Source: Alphaproteobacteria bacterium
GTDB lineage: Bacteria > Pseudomonadota > Alphaproteobacteria > JAAXGF01
Reading direction: 5' to 3'
Assembly: GCA_963555825.3 (NCBI GenBank)
Contig: CAUVXB020000002.1
Coordinates: 2,048,001-2,112,000, forward strand
DNA: 64,000 nucleotides
Below the pieces are notes generated by a model, which searched no databases, was not told where the DNA came from, and saw only the letters and a program-made list of their open reading frames with translations. The position numbers and the translations under genes were made by a program. Below, piece by piece: positions 4,740-52,911 of this stretch (positions within the stretch are counted from its first letter, which is position 1; each line of letters begins with the position of its first letter).

Positions 4740-5282
4740 ATGAGCTACCCCGAACGTCTCGCTGGAAAGATCAAGAGGCAACTTGAAGAAGCGGCTGCGC
4801 AGTCGTCCGAGGCTGATTGGACGACCAGCTTTTTGCTGAAGCACTTGTGTAAGTTAGGACATTGCGAGGGCTTGCTCGTCTATGCCAGCAATTGTGAAGG
4901 AGCTGATGGCGGAGAGTGGCTCTACGATATGTGCTGGCTCGACTACGGTGAAATGTATGAGGACGGCTCGAATCGGAAATTCTTCGACACCGTCCTGGTC
5001 GTCGAGTCCGAATGGAGCACGAAGGATGGCGATCTTGAGGACGATTTCGAGAAGCTCGTCCAAGCACGTTCCGGGTTGCGCGTCATGGTTTTCCAAGCCC
5101 AGACAAAGTCCAAAGCTATCGACACAATTCAGAGGCTCTTTGTCCGGGATATCAAGGCGTATCGACGGGGCCAGCCCGACGACACCCACCTCTTCTGCGC
5201 ATATTTGGCTCCGAACGATAAGGTTTTCCGACATTGGATCGTGCGAAACACGTACCCGTGGGAGGTAATCGAGCTGTATTGA
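4740..5282 (+). CDS. Hypothetical protein, possible PD-(D/E)XK-fold nuclease
   Basis: 180 aa with GAGGA RBS; lower GC and atypical codons; EWLYDMCW...VLVVESEW...DDFEKLV resembles a restriction-endonuclease-like D...ExE core. Confidence 0.65.
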   Translation: MSYPERLAGKIKRQLEEAAAQSSEADWTTSFLLKHLCKLGHCEGLLVYASNCEGADGGEWLYDMCWLDYGEMYEDGSNRKFFDTVLVVESEWSTKDGDLEDDFEKLVQARSGLRVMVFQAQTKSKAIDTIQRLFVRDIKAYRRGQPDDTHLFCAYLAPNDKVFRHWIVRNTYPWEVIELY

Positions 5283-47572: not shown

Positions 47573-48433
47573 ATGGCAGATGCGGGACCGGCACACCTCG
47601 AATGGAAGGACGCCGTTGAACAGCTCGAACGGGCGAACCGGACGATCGAGGAGCAGGCCGAGCATCTCCAGATGGTCATGGACAGCGCGACGATCTCGAT
47701 CTTCTCGCTGAACATCGAGGGCAAGATCACCAGCGCGAACCAGATGACCGCCGAGATGACGGGCCGGCCGGTCGCCGATCTGATCGGTGCGTCCTTCGCC
47801 GGCTTGATCGATAGCGACGACCCGGCCGAGGCCGAGGCGCTGGTCGCCAAGGTGATCGAGGACGGTTATTTCGTGTCCAATCACGAGGCGACAGTCCGCC
47901 GTCCCGACGCCAGCGTACGGATCATCATCCTCAGCTTGCGCGCCCTGACCCGTGACGGTGACATCACCGGCGTCGCGGGCATCGCGAACGACGTGACCGA
48001 ACTGCGCCAGCAGCGCAAGGCGCTGTCGGCCTATCTGCGCATGCTCGAAACGCCCGACCCGACCCTGCTGTCGCTCATGGTGCGCGAATCGCCTGGCTTA
48101 CCCGCCGAGAGCGCGGCCCAGACCGCGGTCGCCGAGGCCGCCGACGACGCCGCGAACCTCGTCCAGATGGACAAGCAGGAACATCGGTCGCATCCGCGCT
48201 TCAAGGTCTACAAGGGCAGCAAGATCTCATTCAACAACGAAACGTCGATCGTCGATTGCGTCGTGCGCAATCTATCGGAGGGCGGCGCGCGGTTGCAGTT
48301 CCCGTCGCACTTCGACTGCCCGCGCTTCGTCGTCCTGCGCATCTCGGGCGGCAATGCCTACAACTGCGAGGTACGCCAGTTCGCCAACAACATCATGGGC
48401 GTCAAATTCCTCGGCGAGCATATTTCGCTTTAA
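47573..48433 (+). CDS. PAS + PilZ domain protein
   Basis: N-terminal PAS/PAC (..NDVTE); C-terminal PilZ with RxxxR (RSHPR) and NxSxxG (NLSEGG). Confidence 0.85.
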   Translation: MADAGPAHLEWKDAVEQLERANRTIEEQAEHLQMVMDSATISIFSLNIEGKITSANQMTAEMTGRPVADLIGASFAGLIDSDDPAEAEALVAKVIEDGYFVSNHEATVRRPDASVRIIILSLRALTRDGDITGVAGIANDVTELRQQRKALSAYLRMLETPDPTLLSLMVRESPGLPAESAAQTAVAEAADDAANLVQMDKQEHRSHPRFKVYKGSKISFNNETSIVDCVVRNLSEGGARLQFPSHFDCPRFVVLRISGGNAYNCEVRQFANNIMGVKFLGEHISL

Positions 48434-48681
48434 ACTTGGTGGTTCAGTTCCCAGGGGAACGCCCTTGGTGATGCTGGCGACATAGGCGCGATGCCAACAA
48501 AAGCCATGAAGAGTACTTGAGCCCGTTTCATCGTCGGGTTCTTGGCGTCGAGTGTGTAAAGTTTATGTTTGGCGAAATTTCTCGAGTTGTCCGCTTATGA
48601 TGCGGTGGACGGCTCCCACCCGCAGGCATCTAGGTGCCAAAATGGTGGTTTCGATGAACCACAGGGAAATAGGAGCCGTCC

Positions 48682-49704
48682 ATGAACGAAGTTATCACGA
48701 TCGGTGTTGATCTTGCGAAGAACGTATTTCAGGTGCATGGCGTTGACGCCGAGGGAACCGTGGTCGTCCGCCGTCAGTTGAGGCGGCGTCAGGTGCTGGC
48801 CTTCTTCGAGAAACAGCCGCCCTGCCTGGTTGGTATGGAGGCATGTGCGACCGCGCATTACTGGGCGCGGGAGATCGCGGCGCTTGGGCATGAGGTCAAG
48901 CTGATGCCGCCGCGCTATGTGAAGCCCTACGTGAAGCGGAACAAGAATGACGCTGCCGATGCGGAGGCTATTTGCGAGGCCGTCACGCGCCCGACGATGC
49001 GCTTTGTCGCGGTGAAGAGCGTCGAGCAGCAGAGCGTTCTGATGCTGCACCGAACGCGCGAGCTTCTGGTCCGCCAGAGAACCATGCTGGTCAACGCTAC
49101 GCGGGCGCACATGGCGGAGTTCGGGGTGGTGGCGCGAACCGGGTTGCCGCAGGTCAAGGAGCTGCTCGCGGTGATCAGCGATGAGGCGGATGAGCGCATT
49201 CCGCCCCTGGCGCGGACTTGCCTGGAAGGGCTGGCGCGGCAGTTGCTGTCGCTGGAGCGGGAGATCGTCGGCGCTGAGAGGCGTATCCACGCCTGGCACC
49301 GGACGAACGAAGAGAGCCTGCGTCTCGAAACCACACCCGGCATCGGACCGATCACGGCGAGCGCGCTGGCATCTTCGATTGCCAATCCGTCGATCTTCAA
49401 ATCGGGCCGCTCAATGGCCGCTTGGATCGGGCTGGTGCCAAGACAGAACTCGACCGGTGGCAAGGAGCGCATGGGGCGGATCTCCAAGCAGGGCGATCAA
49501 TACCTGCGCTGGCTGCTGGTCGCCGGCGCCATGACGGTCATCCGCCACGCCAAGCGACGCGGCACGACCGATCCATGGCTTGCCAACATCATCGCCGACA
49601 AGCCGACCAAGGTCGCGGCCGTGGCGCTGGCCAACAAGAACGCCCGCATTGCCTGGGCGCTTCTGAGACATGGCGGAACCTATCGCAGGCCCGCGACGGC
49701 CTAG
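48682..49704 (+). CDS. IS110-family recombinase/transposase
   Basis: DEDD RuvC-like motifs GVDLAK, GMEAC, KNDAADA; Tnp20 domain PGIGP, GLVPRQNSTGGK (catalytic Ser), KVAAVALANK. Confidence 0.96.
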   Translation: MNEVITIGVDLAKNVFQVHGVDAEGTVVVRRQLRRRQVLAFFEKQPPCLVGMEACATAHYWAREIAALGHEVKLMPPRYVKPYVKRNKNDAADAEAICEAVTRPTMRFVAVKSVEQQSVLMLHRTRELLVRQRTMLVNATRAHMAEFGVVARTGLPQVKELLAVISDEADERIPPLARTCLEGLARQLLSLEREIVGAERRIHAWHRTNEESLRLETTPGIGPITASALASSIANPSIFKSGRSMAAWIGLVPRQNSTGGKERMGRISKQGDQYLRWLLVAGAMTVIRHAKRRGTTDPWLANIIADKPTKVAAVALANKNARIAWALLRHGGTYRRPATA

Positions 49705-51654
49705 GCCGACGAAAACAAGGCGTTCACGAGTTTGGCGGAGTGTAAGTGACGTAATGCAAAATCGGTCGAACCGAGGATCGGGAAAACCCGCTATAGCCAC
49801 GGCGCCTCGAGCGCGTGCTTATGACTGGGACCCGACCCCGCGGATCGCATTAGGGCCAGCGGCCATGTACGCCGCACCAAAAGGCCGGACACATGGCAGC
49901 ACCCGACCAGCTTGCATCAACGTCACAAAATCTCTTGCCAACAGGGAGCCGTCCACACATGAGACATGGCGGAACCTATCGCAGGCCCGCGACGGCCTAG
50001 GCCGACGAAAACAAGGCGTTCACGAGTTTGGCGGAGTGTAAGTGACGTAATGCAAAATCGGTCGAACCGAGGATCGGGAAAACCCGCTATAGCCACGGCG
50101 CCTCGAGCGCGTGCTTATGACTGGGACCCGACCCCGCGGATCGCATTAGGGCCAGCGGCCATGTACGCCGCACCAAAAGGCCGGACACATGGCAGCACCC
50201 GACCAGCTTGCATCAACGTCACAAAATCTCTTGCCAACAGGGGGCCGTCCACACATGAGACATGGCGGAACCTATCGCAGGCCCGCGTCGGCCTAGGCCG
50301 ACGAAAACAAGGCGTTCACGAGTTTGGCGGAGTGTAAGTGACGTAATGCAAAATCGGTCGAACCGAGGATCGGGAAAACCCGCTATAGCCACGGCGCCTC
50401 GAGCGCGTGCTTATGACTGGGACCCGACCCCGCGGATCGCATTAGGGCCAGCGGCCATGTACGCCGCACCAAAAGGCCGGACACATGGCAGCACCCGACC
50501 AGCTTGCATCAACGTCACAAAATCTCTTGCCAACAGGGAGCCGTCCACACATGAGACATGGACCCGACCTATCGCAGGCCCGCGACGGCCTAGGCCGACG
50601 AAAACAAGGCGATCACGAGTTTGGCGGAGTGCATTAGGGCCAGCGGCCATGTACGCCGCACCAATCAAGGCCGGAACATGGCAGCACCCGACCATGTACG
50701 CTTGCATCAAGGCGTCACGAGCTTGGCGGAATCTCTTGCCAACAGGGAGCCGTCCACACATGACTGGGACCCGACCCCGCGGATCGCATTAGGGCCAGCG
50801 GCCATGTACGCCGCACCAAAAGGCCGGACACATGGCAGCACCCGACCAGCTTGCATCAACGTCACAAAATCTCTTGCCAACAGGGAGCCGTCCACACATG
50901 ACTGGGACCCGACCCCGCGGATCGCATTAGGGCCAGCGGCCATGTACGCCGCACCAAAAGGCCGGACACATGGCAGCACCCGACCAGCTTGCATCAACGT
51001 CACAAAATCTCTTGCCAACAGGGAGCCGTCCACACATGGGCCAACAGGGAGCCGTCCACACATGACTGGGACCCGACCCCGCGATCGCATTAGGGCCAGC
51101 GGCCATGTACGCCGCACCAAAAGGCCGGACACATGTACGCCGCACCAAAAGGCCGGACACATGGCAGCACCCGACCAGCTTGCATCAACGTCACAAAATC
51201 TCTTGCCAACAGGGAGCCGTCCACACATGCCAACAGGGAGCCGTCCACACATGACTGGGACCCGACCCCGCGGATCGCATTAGGGCCAGCGGCCATGTAC
51301 GCCGCACCAAAAGGCCGGACACATGGCAGCACCCGACCAGCTTGCATCAACGTCACAAAATCTCTTGCCAACAGGGAGCCGTCCACACATGCCAACAGGG
51401 AGCCGTGCCAACAGGGAGCCGTCCACACATGCCAACAGGGAGCCGTCCACACATGTACAGGGAGCCGTCCACACATGCCAAAGGGAGCCGGACACATGCC
51501 AACAGGGACCCGTCCGCATGCAACAGGGACGTCCACCATGCCAAAGGGATCCACACATGCCAACAGGGAGCCGTCCACACATGCCACACATGGGAGCCCC
51601 GACCAGCTTGCATCAACGTCACATCACTTGCCAACAGGGAGCCGTCCACACATG
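49664..51654 (+). repeat. Nested tandem array of IS1111 right-end segments (296, 138 and 24-26 bp units, partly scrambled)
   Basis: Right-end CCGTCCACACA-TG recurs with its T at 49960, 50256, 50552, 50761, 50899, 51037, 51063, 51228, 51252, 51390 ... 51653. Confidence 0.95.
49740..49920 (+). ncRNA. Predicted bridge/seek RNA of the IS1111-type element (ends approximate)
   Basis: Target loop: TAGCCA (49794-49799), hairpin, GCTTATG (49817-49823), matching target GCTTA-TG-GCT; donor loop: CGCATTA (49846-49852), hairpin, ACACATG (49889-49895), matching circle junction ACACA-TG-ATGCG. Confidence 0.75.
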
Positions 51655-51792
51655 GCTGAGGCGGCTGGGAACGGACATTGGGCGACCGACGCCGCCAGGT
51701 CCGCTTTCCGCTCGTAAGCCGATTCGATTCCCTTGGGAGTCCGGGCGTGAGCCACGGGTCGGCTCGGGTCGGCAAGCCGGGTTGACTTGAAC

Positions 51793-52911
51793 CTAATTCT
51801 CAAGGGTTTGGAGCACGAGGTTCTTGAAGTGGGAGAGCGCGTGCTCGCTCCACGCGCCGCGCTCGGGGTCGAGCATGATGTAGCTTCGCTCGAAGCTTCG
51901 AGACCGCTGGCCGCGCTGAATGCCTTCCGCGACCCCTACATCCTCGGCATTGACGACTTCGGCGGCAAAATTGATCTGTCGCCACTGCTCGTCGGTCGGC
52001 TCGGTATAGGGCAGATAGAAGTCGTACGTCTCGCGGCTGCGCTCGGGGCCGTCCGGCATGATGTGCAGCACCCTGAAGCCGCCGCCCGGCATCGACATCG
52101 GGCACAGGTTCGGCCACAGCCACCAGTTGCGATGCTGCGGGTAGCTTGCGCGGTCGATTTCGAAGCCGCCCGCCAAGCCAGGCCGGGCGTCGCTCGAGTG
52201 GCTCAGGTACTTGCCATGGGCAACGACCCGGTAGCTTTCATCGAGGTTGCTCGCCAGCACGGGGTGAATGACCGGCGTGTGATAATTCTCGTTGTAGTTG
52301 TCGACCAGATTCTTCCAGTTGGATTCGATGACAAACGCCTTGCGGTGAACCAATGTCAGTTCGTCAATCGCCGGCTCGTAGTCGCACATTTCTTGTTCCA
52401 GCCCGGGCATTTGTTCCGAAAGCGCGGCGGCATCGGGATCGAGATTTACGAAGACGAAACCGCAGAAAATCTCGACGCGTACCGGGTTCAGGCAGAACTT
52501 CCCGCTGTCGAATCCCGGCACGTCCGTACTCTTGCGCGCGAACCGCAATGTCCCGTCGGTGTTGTACGTCCACGCATGGTAAGGACAGGTGATGACATCG
52601 ACATGACCACTGCCTTCCAGCAGCCAATGGCCGCGGTGACGGCAGACGTTGTAGAAGGCCTTAAGCCGGCCGTCCTGGTCGCGAATGATGATGATGCTCT
52701 CATCGCCGACCGTGCAGGTTACGAAAGCGCCGGGTTTGCGAAACTGCGAGCGATGGCCAGCGAAATTCCAACACCGATAGAAGATGCGTTCATGCTCGCG
52801 CGCCAGGATTTCAGGGTCCGTGTAGTAGTGTGCGGGAAGCGAGTAACTGTCGTCACGTAGCCGGGCGTCGCCGTCATCGGACATGCTTCGAATTTTCGAG
52901 GTGTCTTTCAT
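51793..52911 (-). CDS. Rieske aromatic-ring-hydroxylating oxygenase alpha subunit (choline monooxygenase/CntA-like)
   Basis: NVCRHRG..CPYHAWTY Rieske motif; NWK..DNYNENYH..IHP and ED iron-site motifs. Confidence 0.9.
   Translation of the reverse strand: MKDTSKIRSMSDDGDARLRDDSYSLPAHYYTDPEILAREHERIFYRCWNFAGHRSQFRKPGAFVTCTVGDESIIIIRDQDGRLKAFYNVCRHRGHWLLEGSGHVDVITCPYHAWTYNTDGTLRFARKSTDVPGFDSGKFCLNPVRVEIFCGFVFVNLDPDAAALSEQMPGLEQEMCDYEPAIDELTLVHRKAFVIESNWKNLVDNYNENYHTPVIHPVLASNLDESYRVVAHGKYLSHSSDARPGLAGGFEIDRASYPQHRNWWLWPNLCPMSMPGGGFRVLHIMPDGPERSRETYDFYLPYTEPTDEQWRQINFAAEVVNAEDVGVAEGIQRGQRSRSFERSYIMLDPERGAWSEHALSHFKNLVLQTLEN

Follow-up and report, generated by a model that had tools for sequence, protein, structure and literature searches.

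IS1111 elements are defined by subterminal inverted repeats of 11–13 bp, with extensions of 7 bp at the left end and 3 bp at the right (PMC11187229). In the IS110 family, tandem non-coding repeat units lying beside the transposase were reported in a preprint of August 2026 (n = 468; bioRxiv 10.64898/2026.08.14.744561); the boundaries of these units keep left-donor matches, and its authors suggest that reactions started at the left donor and resolved in place duplicate the intervening segment. The text of that preprint mentions neither IS1111, nor the core dinucleotide at the internal boundary, nor self-targeting of guide DNA, some of which its figures or supplements may cover. For IS621, recombination with the core and one arm only has been described, as have events without any arm match (bioRxiv 10.64898/2026.08.31.748434). 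In ISPpu9, other AG dinucleotides are used once the ends have been mutated, and two strains carry a tandem duplication of the small-RNA module (PMC12288879).

The array analysed here, which follows the right end of an element assigned to the IS1111 type, is probably a clear natural example of a recombinase by-product that two 2026 preprints began describing. A first-pass annotation of this DNA had presented the behaviour as undescribed, a claim that falls since the IS110 preprint already reports tandem non-coding units. In the literature searched, with supplements and figures outside the search, no other or previous description of such arrays for IS1111 elements came up.

The element, its guide RNA and the right-end array

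The window (the whole 64,000-nucleotide stretch of DNA analysed) contains a canonical IS1111-type element of 1360 bp at 48600–49959 on the + strand, the strand of all the features given below; six full copies are present in the genome. Its transposase/recombinase gene (48682–49704; 340 aa) specifies an N-terminal, RuvC-like DEDD domain (DEDD_Tnp_IS110, PF01548; Pfam, 1.7e-16) and a C-terminal Transposase_20 domain (PF02371; 7.9e-26), the arrangement of the IS1111 group. A 13-bp subterminal inverted repeat lies at 48605–48617 and 49944–49956; the left extension is 7 bp long (core counted in) and the right one 3 bp, a geometry that agrees with the IS1111 definition of PMC11187229. The left TG core dinucleotide (48598–48599), with the left target arm 5′ of it, precedes the left end in all six copies. 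The right copy of the core, with the right target arm 3′ of it, was placed by right-end cutting beyond the array (51653–51654); TG flanks both sides of the insertion in 6/6 copies. Among the five copies whose left end is standard, four have similar left target arms (copy C being atypical, with copy F outside the comparison), and a loose target motif occurs only seven times in the genome. Downstream of the transposase gene is a non-coding region of 255 nt. ISEc11, ISKpn4 and ISPa11 have the same subterminal inverted repeats, 7-bp/3-bp extensions and downstream non-coding region (PMC11187229), and the classification of the element as an IS1111-type bridge/seekRNA element is supported.

A predicted bridge/seekRNA core, with a target-binding loop followed by a donor-binding loop, spans 49775–49900. 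The two-loop consensus fold obtained with RNAalifold from 27 sequences has 25 pairs, 13 of them with compensatory changes; an Rfam scan of 48000–52500 at E ≤ 1 returned no family. Across 60 relatives, the guide columns covary with flanks and ends (249 matches out of 360, versus 182 ± 6 in shuffled sets; 0/2000 shuffles as high). By length, covariation and fold, the 255-nt region fits the guide-loop region expected downstream of an IS1111 transposase gene, its RNA being predicted. The left-target guide DNA with its core, a putative pseudo-attL, lies at 49817–49823, where the 138-bp units start. The left-donor guide DNA, with the core and two handshake-like bases, forms a putative pseudo-attR at 49887–49897, at which the variants ACACA, ATACA and ACATA track the right end of each relative. 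The 66-bp units of copy B also start here, and the 28-bp duplication at 51104–51163 has one of its ends here. The covariation confirms that site 49822 (element position 1223) is DNA encoding the left-target guide and site 49894 (position 1295) DNA encoding the left-donor guide, as the first-pass annotation had said of 49822. The right-target guide DNA (the reverse complement of core and right target arm) was placed by eye, unscored, at 49792–49799, where the columns follow the right flank in the 60 relatives; a segment further 3′ was ruled out by the alignment of relatives, being the inner hairpin. In the guides of ISEc11, ISKpn4 and ISPa11, too, the top-strand complement comes before the bottom-strand match (PMC11187229).

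To the right of the element, 1693 bp (49960–51652) are made only of its own right end. Tandem Repeats Finder (TRF) returned a 296-bp period (3.3 copies, 49664–50631, 98% matches), a 138-bp period (2.2 copies, 50730–51038, 100% matches), periods of 26 bp (2 copies, 51014–51064), 28 bp (2.1 copies, 51104–51163) and 24 bp (2.1 copies, 51204–51253), and a degenerate 24-bp run (10.6 copies, 51366–51598, 78% matches, 19% indels). Units were defined by cutting at each right-end terminus followed by TG. This gave 17 termini, ending at 49959, 50255, 50551, 50760, 50898, 51036, 51062, 51227, 51251, 51389, 51429, 51453, 51475, 51557, 51581, 51590 and 51652; the right end is thus repeated ∼16 times. Six of the 16 segments after the first terminus are, over their whole length, exact copies of the 3′-end of the element (138 bp three times and 24 bp three times), two more, of 296 bp, each carry one differing base, and the remaining eight are imperfect or scrambled.

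From the element outwards, the array begins with two added 296-bp units (49960–50551; 99.7% identity to the native unit). Each holds the whole non-coding region and with it a guide-RNA gene, giving three complete guide-RNA genes (native included) and one scrambled. A scrambled 209-bp unit follows (50552–50760; located by sequence and right-end cutting), in which pieces of 296-bp and 138-bp units are interleaved. TRF and right-end cutting then place 138-bp units, which carry the donor loop only, mixed with 24- and 26-bp units (50761–51389), and finally 24-bp and shorter units, partly degenerate, as far as the outermost right terminus (51390–51652). One of the 138-bp units is longer through an internal 28-bp duplication and also lacks one base; this duplication (∼28 bp, near 51135) joins the donor-guide DNA ACACA-TG to the TG at 49866. 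Across the arrays of the genome, many units (24 to 94 bp) have no complete loop.

The first-pass description is borne out in its main lines by TRF and terminus cutting: the right end is reiterated as 296-bp, scrambled, 138-bp and 24–26-bp units, the exact right terminus anchors the array, whose clean junctions all have the TG core, the three junction TGs named (49664, 49822 and 49936) are correctly placed, and both the duplication near 51135 and the set of three full guide-RNA copies with further donor-loop-only copies are present. Its proposal that a TTGCCA −35 element stands before each copy survives in part: TTGCCA precedes each terminus, but no complete sigma-70-like promoter was predicted at any array junction. 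The scrambled stretches (50552–50760 and about 51400–51640), already suspected of being a consensus over heterogeneous reads, led to the same reading from the sequence; they do stand in the deposited record, but are likely a mixed consensus whose exact structure is untrustworthy. Most of the array of copy D is scrambled as well, while those of copies B and C are 100% clean.

Junction sites and recurrence of the arrays

The four array-bearing copies of the element contain seven distinct internal start sites, at element positions 489, 1065, 1223, 1227, 1267, 1295 and 1337. All seven are TG, and each exactly matching unit runs precisely to the terminus. In the element, 94 of 1360 positions are TG (6.9%), and all seven sites would be TG by chance with a probability of ∼7.5e-9 if the left boundary were random. 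Resemblance to a guide arm (5/7 bases) was seen at three of the seven, the other four scoring 1 to 3/7; by class, two sites are left-target-like, one is left-donor-like and four are core-only. The TG at 49664–49665, in the 3′-end of the transposase gene, starts the 296-bp units and matches the left target arm at 5/7 bases in its left arm; that at 49936–49937, inside TTGCCA, starts the 24-bp units and resembles no guide arm (2/7). The right arms match the right target arm at 2 to 4/7 bases (mean over all TG sites, 2.1) and the right donor arm at 0 to 3/7; unit boundaries keep a left-donor match without a right-donor match, as in IS110 tandem expansion.

Six of the seven sites lie less than 300 nt from the terminus, a stretch that has 13 TG sites in total. 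Guide-arm enrichment had P = 0.027 over all TG sites and P = 0.074 among those 13. The robust features of the start sites are the core and nearness to the end, the guide-arm enrichment being weak once nearness is allowed for. The idea that internal junctions resemble the true target or its guide stands for 49664 and 49822 (5/7 in the left arm of each), but not in general. Microhomology extends leftwards from the junction to 3, 4 and 7 bases at three sites (ATG at 1223, CATG at 1267, ACACATG at 1295); the other four share only the 2-base core.

The right-end array is not a local oddity: it was found on four of the six copies of the element and on all four copies of a second element, and three loci elsewhere carry one such duplication each. 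In copies E and F the right end is single and the flanking cores are intact. Unit types vary between loci, although copies C and D have two in common (134 and 94 bp); the largest unit of any copy, 872 bp, is a right-end fragment starting at TG. In all four arrays the largest unit type adjoins the element and smaller types lie further out. No copy (0/6) contains a nested or tandem full element, and a genome-wide BLAST search returned no reciprocal deletion product, i.e. a truncation at an internal TG joined to the flank. The second element, identified with Pfam as a member of the IS110 family, has a transposase 32% identical to that of the first and AC as its core. Right-end-anchored duplications are present on each of its copies, the unit lengths being about 630, 122, 203 and 24 bp. 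The four internal sites are all AC, which makes up 4.7% of positions, and three of them share only the 2-base core. With two elements of different cores each showing its own core at the junctions, the junction dinucleotide follows the core of the element itself. Five other IS110-family groups of the genome, 26 copies in all, had no such array. Short-period repeats (12–30 bp) lie near four of these copies, some 480 to 1200 nt away from the transposase match. In another, far more abundant insertion sequence (about 75 unit matches in the genome), a tandem duplication is internal and not end-anchored. A messy array at G000:C2:2429930-2431270 lies inside long open frames and was set aside as an unrelated coding repeat.

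The first-pass annotation had proposed a search of other genomes for right-end repeats with core-aligned junctions, and such repeats were found: other assemblies offered 70 related loci whose ends could be resolved, and three of these (L068, and L101 and L104 from one genome) have one right-end-anchored duplication each, with TG at both boundaries. That of L068 uses the site homologous to position 1267, and the left-target/left-donor guide DNA was used in neither of the two independent events. The remaining 67 relatives have no array. A further search of 40 relatives and the genome of the window, mostly fragmented assemblies, showed no array among the matches listed for the 10 matching genomes; in one of them (G001) a left-end piece abuts a right-end piece. 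Several candidate loci were set aside: L039, L067, L087 and L090, which have several right ends, are separate neighbouring elements; L033 and L079 had been flagged by 12-mers other than the terminal repeat; and the 62-bp duplication of L051 directly follows the stop codon and is not end-anchored. Short or low-identity repeats were seen 560–1000 nt past the gene at L057, L088 (two TRF hits) and L107.

Origin of the arrays

The array is probably a by-product of the element's own recombinase, acting between the right-end junction and nearby core sites (half-match or core-only), with unequal crossover thereafter. The recombinase would act at the junction of left donor arm, TG core and right target arm, joining it to a nearby internal TG instead of the true left end, on a sister chromatid or a nascent strand. 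Each event would add one copy of the segment running from the internal TG through the terminus. Partner sites would need the core, and some would offer a half-match besides, the left-target guide DNA mimicking a left junction and the left-donor guide DNA a right junction. Homologous unequal crossover between units could then expand, contract and shuffle the array, which would travel with the element if the outermost terminus were used in transposition. The own-core junctions of two elements with different cores point to the enzyme rather than to generic slippage. Moreover, published chemistry fits this proposal, given the half-match and core-only recombination of IS621 and the left-donor matches of the IS110 tandem units. 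Against it count the missing reciprocal deletion products, which a strictly reciprocal exchange would make, and the restriction of guide-arm resemblance to three of seven sites, with the enrichment falling to P = 0.074 near the end. The two events in other genomes, both away from the left-target/left-donor guide DNA, also argue against it, as do the scrambled stretches of the window array and of copy D.

The leftward microhomology at three sites is explained equally well by nick-induced template switching, a rather unlikely origin of the array as a whole. Here the recombinase would nick the top strand just after the right-end TG, a fork would run off, and the nascent 3′-end (...ACATG) would re-anneal to an upstream TG and recopy the segment, with neither duplex strand exchange nor guide recognition of the partner. 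Such switching would account for the crowding of sites near the terminus, for microhomology that runs left of the core and is never required on its right, and for the failure to find reciprocal deletion products by BLAST; double-stranded circles could not give rise to units as small as 24 to 94 bp, and the outward decrease in unit size is what short jumps from the outermost end predict. However, sites sharing only the 2-base core (four of seven, and three of four in the second element) offer little for re-annealing, the 872-bp and ∼630-bp units demand long jumps, and nick-driven switching is undocumented, whereas for this enzyme family the IS621 preprint gives direct documentation of half-match and core-only recombination. 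Recombination at the junction by the element's enzyme is also favoured over whole-element self-insertion with later collapse, built on the self-insertion that the first-pass annotation had proposed. Here an excised circle would enter a pseudo-target inside another copy; the two left parts would then recombine by homology and one of them be lost, with the right part left duplicated. Sites 1065 and 1223 do resemble the left target arm (5/7), and IS110 elements are without target immunity and re-insert at occupied loci (bioRxiv 10.64898/2026.08.14.744561). Yet insertion of a whole element is not needed, and none of the six copies contains a nested full one; the 872-bp unit is a right-end fragment, the internal right arms match the right target arm poorly (2 to 4/7, with 2.1 the mean for all TG sites), and sites 24 to 94 bp from the end fall in or beside the terminal repeat. 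With two steps needed for each of many units, this origin is improbable.

That the repeats might be an assembly or library artefact, absent from the chromosome or derived from real small excision circles that were amplified and worked into the assembled right end, is suggested by the two scrambled stretches and most of the array of copy D, which look like a consensus of disagreeing reads, and by the lack of a junction-spanning read or contig among those listed from four public runs, all of them short contigs; array parts without contig cover count neither way. The clean arrays of copies B and C, core-specific junctions in two elements, the 26 array-free copies of other IS110-family groups and the similar single duplications in unrelated assemblies speak against it. 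So does read depth. In the assembly the last 120 nt are present in 14 copies, against 6–7 of the element body, and depth ratios in the public contigs are of the size this predicts: the right-terminal part was deeper than the body in three of four runs (2046 versus 693–870 in X19 and 173 versus 64–103 in X15, both of which have the insertion sites of this genome and, as possible source data, may be non-independent; 318 versus 163 in X3), with no step in run X1. An artefact is thus very unlikely. Less probable still is a selected array, in which extra guide genes and termini would be kept for raising guide dose or titrating the recombinase, thereby tuning transposition. Three complete guide-RNA genes (native included) and >10 extra termini in one locus would suit such a role, and the 134- and 94-bp units common to copies C and D suggest that arrays may be inherited via transposition; but unit types differ by locus, many small units have no complete loop, promoter prediction at the junctions gave none, 67 of 70 relatives have no array, and two of the six copies retain a single right end with intact cores.

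A broader proposal, which we regard as doubtful, is that an IS1111 guide-RNA gene beside the right end would necessarily hold junction mimics in direct orientation. Elements would then be self-reactive, accumulating guide genes and decoy ends in heritable arrays, which would record activity and feed back on it through guide dose or recombinase titration. Bridge/seekRNA recombinases are under development as genome editors, and their side reactions therefore matter. In this respect the genome is a natural experiment, with two elements of different cores whose right-end duplications each have the inner boundary on their own core; it suggests that core and nearness can be enough for a partner site. 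Guide-encoding DNA would also be a half-site for the same guide, a design point wherever the guide-RNA gene sits near the donor end. For annotation, right-end arrays explain messy assemblies beside IS1111 elements.

Comparison with known systems

Like CRISPR and TIGR guide arrays, the array consists of tandem repeats with guide-RNA sequence. It differs from them in having no variable spacers: its units are copies or fragments of one guide gene, with neither memory nor diversity, in agreement with the first-pass caution against reading it as a CRISPR-like memory. The IS1111 elements ISEc11, ISKpn4 and ISPa11 share its end geometry and guide layout, but the word 'tandem' does not occur in the main text of PMC11187229. 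ISPpu9 and MITEPpu9 of P. putida (PMC12288879) provide a likeness in core-dinucleotide recombination (AG in ISPpu9) between alternative boundaries within the IS110 family. Their modules, however, are bounded by both end boxes (A′ and B′), whereas the units of the window have the right end only and an arbitrary core start; they begin in internal sequence, without the left-end box of a MITE-like unit. In excision assays of CazIS110-1, recombinase-dependent tandem repeats arose in 3/96 colonies, reverted, and were called transient by-products (bioRxiv 10.1101/2025.10.25.684509); those repeats comprise the whole cargo and use both true ends, while here partial right-end units are fixed in the chromosome.

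The half-match reactions of IS621 (bioRxiv 10.64898/2026.08.31.748434) include left-donor-only, right-donor-only and no-match classes, similar to the mix of sites seen here. That work, done in vitro and in E. coli, concerns excision and off-target insertion of an IS110-type element, and its text describes neither tandem arrays nor an IS1111-type element. Likeness to the IS110 tandem expansion (bioRxiv 10.64898/2026.08.14.744561) lies in same-strand repeats beside the transposase that keep the left-donor match only. Its definition asks for two or more neighbouring units on one strand next to a transposase, no shorter than 50 bp and no less than 95% identical; it takes in the 296-bp (3.3 copies) and 138-bp (2.2 copies) repeats of the window, and copies B and C too, although a detection that needs units of at least 50 bp would miss the 24-bp units. 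The arrays differ in that the units of the window carry the guide-RNA gene, since IS1111 elements encode their guide RNA at the right end.

The element and its right-end arrays

The IS1111-type element of the window (48600-49959; 1360 bp, with its core dinucleotide TG at either side) carries a transposase gene (48682-49704) specifying a 340-aa protein with both IS110-family domains, followed on its 3′ side by a non-coding region of 255 nt. Its 13-bp subterminal inverted repeats, with extensions of 7 bp on the left (core counted) and 3 bp on the right, have the IS1111-family geometry described in the available part of PMC11187229. The neighbouring genes, encoding a PAS and PilZ domain protein and a Rieske ring-hydroxylating oxygenase alpha subunit, are not disrupted. 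After the element comes an array of 1693 bp (49960-51652) consisting solely of right-end sequence, then TG and the right flank. The repeat periods of the array are 296, 138, 28, 26 and 24 bp according to Tandem Repeats Finder. Cutting at each terminus gave 17 right termini at the locus; six of the 16 added segments matched the 3′-end of the element exactly over their full length, eight were imperfect or scrambled, and two 296-bp units each differed from the element by one base. The coordinates and junction motifs in the first-pass annotation, made from the sequence alone, were all correct on re-check of the sequence. No complete promoter was predicted at the array junctions. A simple scan revealed a minus-strand terminator-like hairpin and T-run at 49883-49908, the reverse complement of part of the donor-loop region, repeated in six further units; hairpins in units made up 7 of the 11 sites found (shuffles, 3.6 ± 2.1).

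Six full copies of the element (A-F, copy A being that of the window) are present in the genome, which comprises two contigs and 6.04 Mb; four of them, A to D, carry right-end arrays. The units are of 296, 138 and 24 bp plus irregular ones in copy A; of 872 bp and then 66 bp (three times) in copy B; and of 134 bp and then 94 bp (twice each) in copy C, while copy D has a scrambled stretch followed by units of 134 and 94 bp. Only one right end is present in each of copies E and F. The arrays of copies B and C, both clean, were confirmed by a separate re-check. The scrambled stretches of the window (50552-50760 and ~51400-51640) and most of the copy D array probably reflect disagreeing reads, and the exact order within them should not be trusted. 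The unit types of 134 and 94 bp common to copies C and D suggest either inheritance through transposition or hot sites used more than once. The units start at seven distinct internal sites (element positions 489, 1065, 1223, 1227, 1267, 1295 and 1337, counted from window 48600). All seven have TG, which occurs at 94 of the 1360 element positions; six of them fall within 300 nt of the right terminus, a stretch with 13 TG sites in all.

The right ends of copy E and of a related element, ~77-80% identical, meet tail to tail (G000:C2:525392-525627, G000 being the window's own genome and C1 and C2 its contigs); the two right termini are only a few bases apart, and one element seems to have taken the end region of the other as its target. 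Three degenerate solo fragments, one of a left end and two of right ends (G000:C2:1617109-1617255, C2:2633437-2633509 and C1:1638212-1638260), come from this element or a related one and have the appearance of old remnants, not of products of reciprocal deletion.

A second element, other genomes and sequencing runs

A second IS110-family element of this genome (1361 bp, core AC, non-coding region downstream) encodes a transposase that shares 32% identity with the first across the aligned region and has the same two Pfam domains. Its four copies (G000:C1:344478-346224, C1:935387-936626, C1:1665071-1666200 and C2:1372476-1373998) all bear a right-end-anchored tandem duplication, with units of ~630, 122, 24 and 203 bp, that of 203 bp in three tandem copies. 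AC is present at all four internal sites (background, 64 of 1361 positions). Since each internal boundary carries the core of its own element, TG or AC, the junction dinucleotide tracks the element's core. No right-end arrays were found in the five other IS110-family groups of the genome (26 copies); four of those copies have short-period repeats ~0.5-1.2 kb away. Another insertion sequence, itself abundant, has a tandem duplication of 277 bp (G000:C2:1324774-1325328; a 1181-bp repeated element, the unit having ~75 genome matches) that is internal, with no end anchoring. Insertion sequences are very abundant in this genome, which also contains a MITE-like repeat of ~313 bp (86 genome matches to a 64-bp unit), from whose left end 64 bp are tandemly duplicated in one place only (G000:C2:3458458-3458588).

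The first-pass annotation had proposed searching other genomes for right-end repeats with core-aligned junctions. Of 80 related loci fetched (transposases 60-84% identical), 70 had resolvable ends, and three of these (L068, L101 and L104, the last two from one genome) showed a single right-end-anchored duplication with TG at both boundaries; that of L068 starts at the site homologous to element position 1267. Locus L051 has a perfect 62-bp tandem duplication (4925-5050) just past the transposase stop codon, without a right-end anchor. At G001:C97:2324-2631, in a relative's genome, left- and right-end pieces of the element (positions 1-219, 82% identical, and 1273-1362, 88% identical) are joined with nothing between them, apparently a short derivative of a related element with its interior deleted.

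Four public sequencing runs (X1, X3, X15 and X19) were compared with the window as short contigs, using depth among the contigs listed. X15 and X19 have the same insertion sites as the genome and may be its source data. From the assembly, 14 copies of the element's last 120 nt are expected versus 6-7 of its body; among the contigs listed, right-terminal contigs reached ~2-3 times the depth of the body in X19, X15 and X3, and X1 showed no step between the two. These depths, together with the clean arrays of copies B and C, junctions that follow two different cores, and the duplications seen in other assemblies, make a pure artefact unlikely. In X3 (organism A), depth rose from ~173 to ~300-350 at the bin containing 49664 (window 49654-49995) and the left flank of the window copy was missing, which hints that a related strain also has a duplication starting near 49664.

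Guide assignments and internal partner sites

Guides were assigned by aligning the non-coding regions of 60 relatives. Block 49817-49823 tracks each relative's left target arm and core (249 of 360 matches versus 182 ± 6 in shuffles, none of 2000 reaching 249), and block 49887-49897 each relative's right end and core; the bases at 49896-49897 (GC or AC) follow the first two of the right flank, a likeness to the handshake guides of IS621. Judged by eye, block 49792-49799 is the reverse complement of the core and right flank, and block ~49845-49850 the complement of the left end. RNAalifold (27 sequences) placed the guide blocks in internal loops of two stem-loops, with compensatory changes in 13 of the 25 pairs of the predicted fold; no Rfam model was found for the predicted guide RNA. 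The top-strand complement comes first, the guide order that PMC11187229, in its available part, gives for IS1111 seekRNAs. Because the blocks follow the flanks and ends of the relatives, and in view of the fold and guide order, 49822 is left-target-guide DNA mimicking the left junction, its assignment as guide DNA having been made already in the first-pass annotation, and 49894 is left-donor-guide DNA mimicking the right junction.

The RNA-guided self-targeting proposed at first was examined at the seven internal sites. At three of them, 5 of 7 bases agree with a guide arm (1065 and 1223, left target arm; 1295, left donor arm); at the remaining four, agreement is 1 to 3 of 7. The enrichment (permutation test) had P = 0.027 over all TG sites and P = 0.074 within the last 300 nt. 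Left-target-guide-like DNA occurs at one of the four internal sites of the second element, and, outside this genome, left-target or left-donor guide DNA at neither of the two independent events. What a partner site firmly requires is the core and nearness to the end; arm matches appear to help but to be dispensable.

Possible routes and comparison with known systems

In the reading that fits best, the recombinase would act on the right junction and an internal core site of the sister duplex, each event adding one unit, and homologous unequal crossover would then follow. Several features are accounted for just as well by a template switch that a recombinase nick sets off, namely microhomology reaching 3, 4 and 7 bases leftward, the position of the start sites near the end, and the finding of no reciprocal deletion products among the element copies and fragments of the genome. 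There is no need to invoke collapse after self-insertion of a whole element, self-insertion being put forward in the first-pass annotation, and none of the six copies has a full copy nested in it. Reintegration of circles was ruled out as a general route, since units of 24-94 bp cannot come from double-stranded circles.

Recombination followed by unequal crossover agrees with two 2026 preprints, as far as their available parts go. In one, half-match recombination by IS621 needs only the core and one arm, and one site class has no arm match (bioRxiv 10.64898/2026.08.31.748434). In the other, from August 2026, tandem non-coding units at IS110 loci retain left-donor matches only, in-place resolution of left-donor-initiated reactions being its authors' speculation (bioRxiv 10.64898/2026.08.14.744561). 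The general phenomenon, which the first-pass annotation did not know to be described, is already in print, as a preprint, in the available part of the latter, whose figures and supplements may cover some of what follows. This analysis adds an IS1111-type case with the guide-RNA gene inside the repeated units, the placing of the inner boundary on the element's own core, via two different-core elements of one genome, and the built-in pseudo-junctions that guide-encoding DNA forms.
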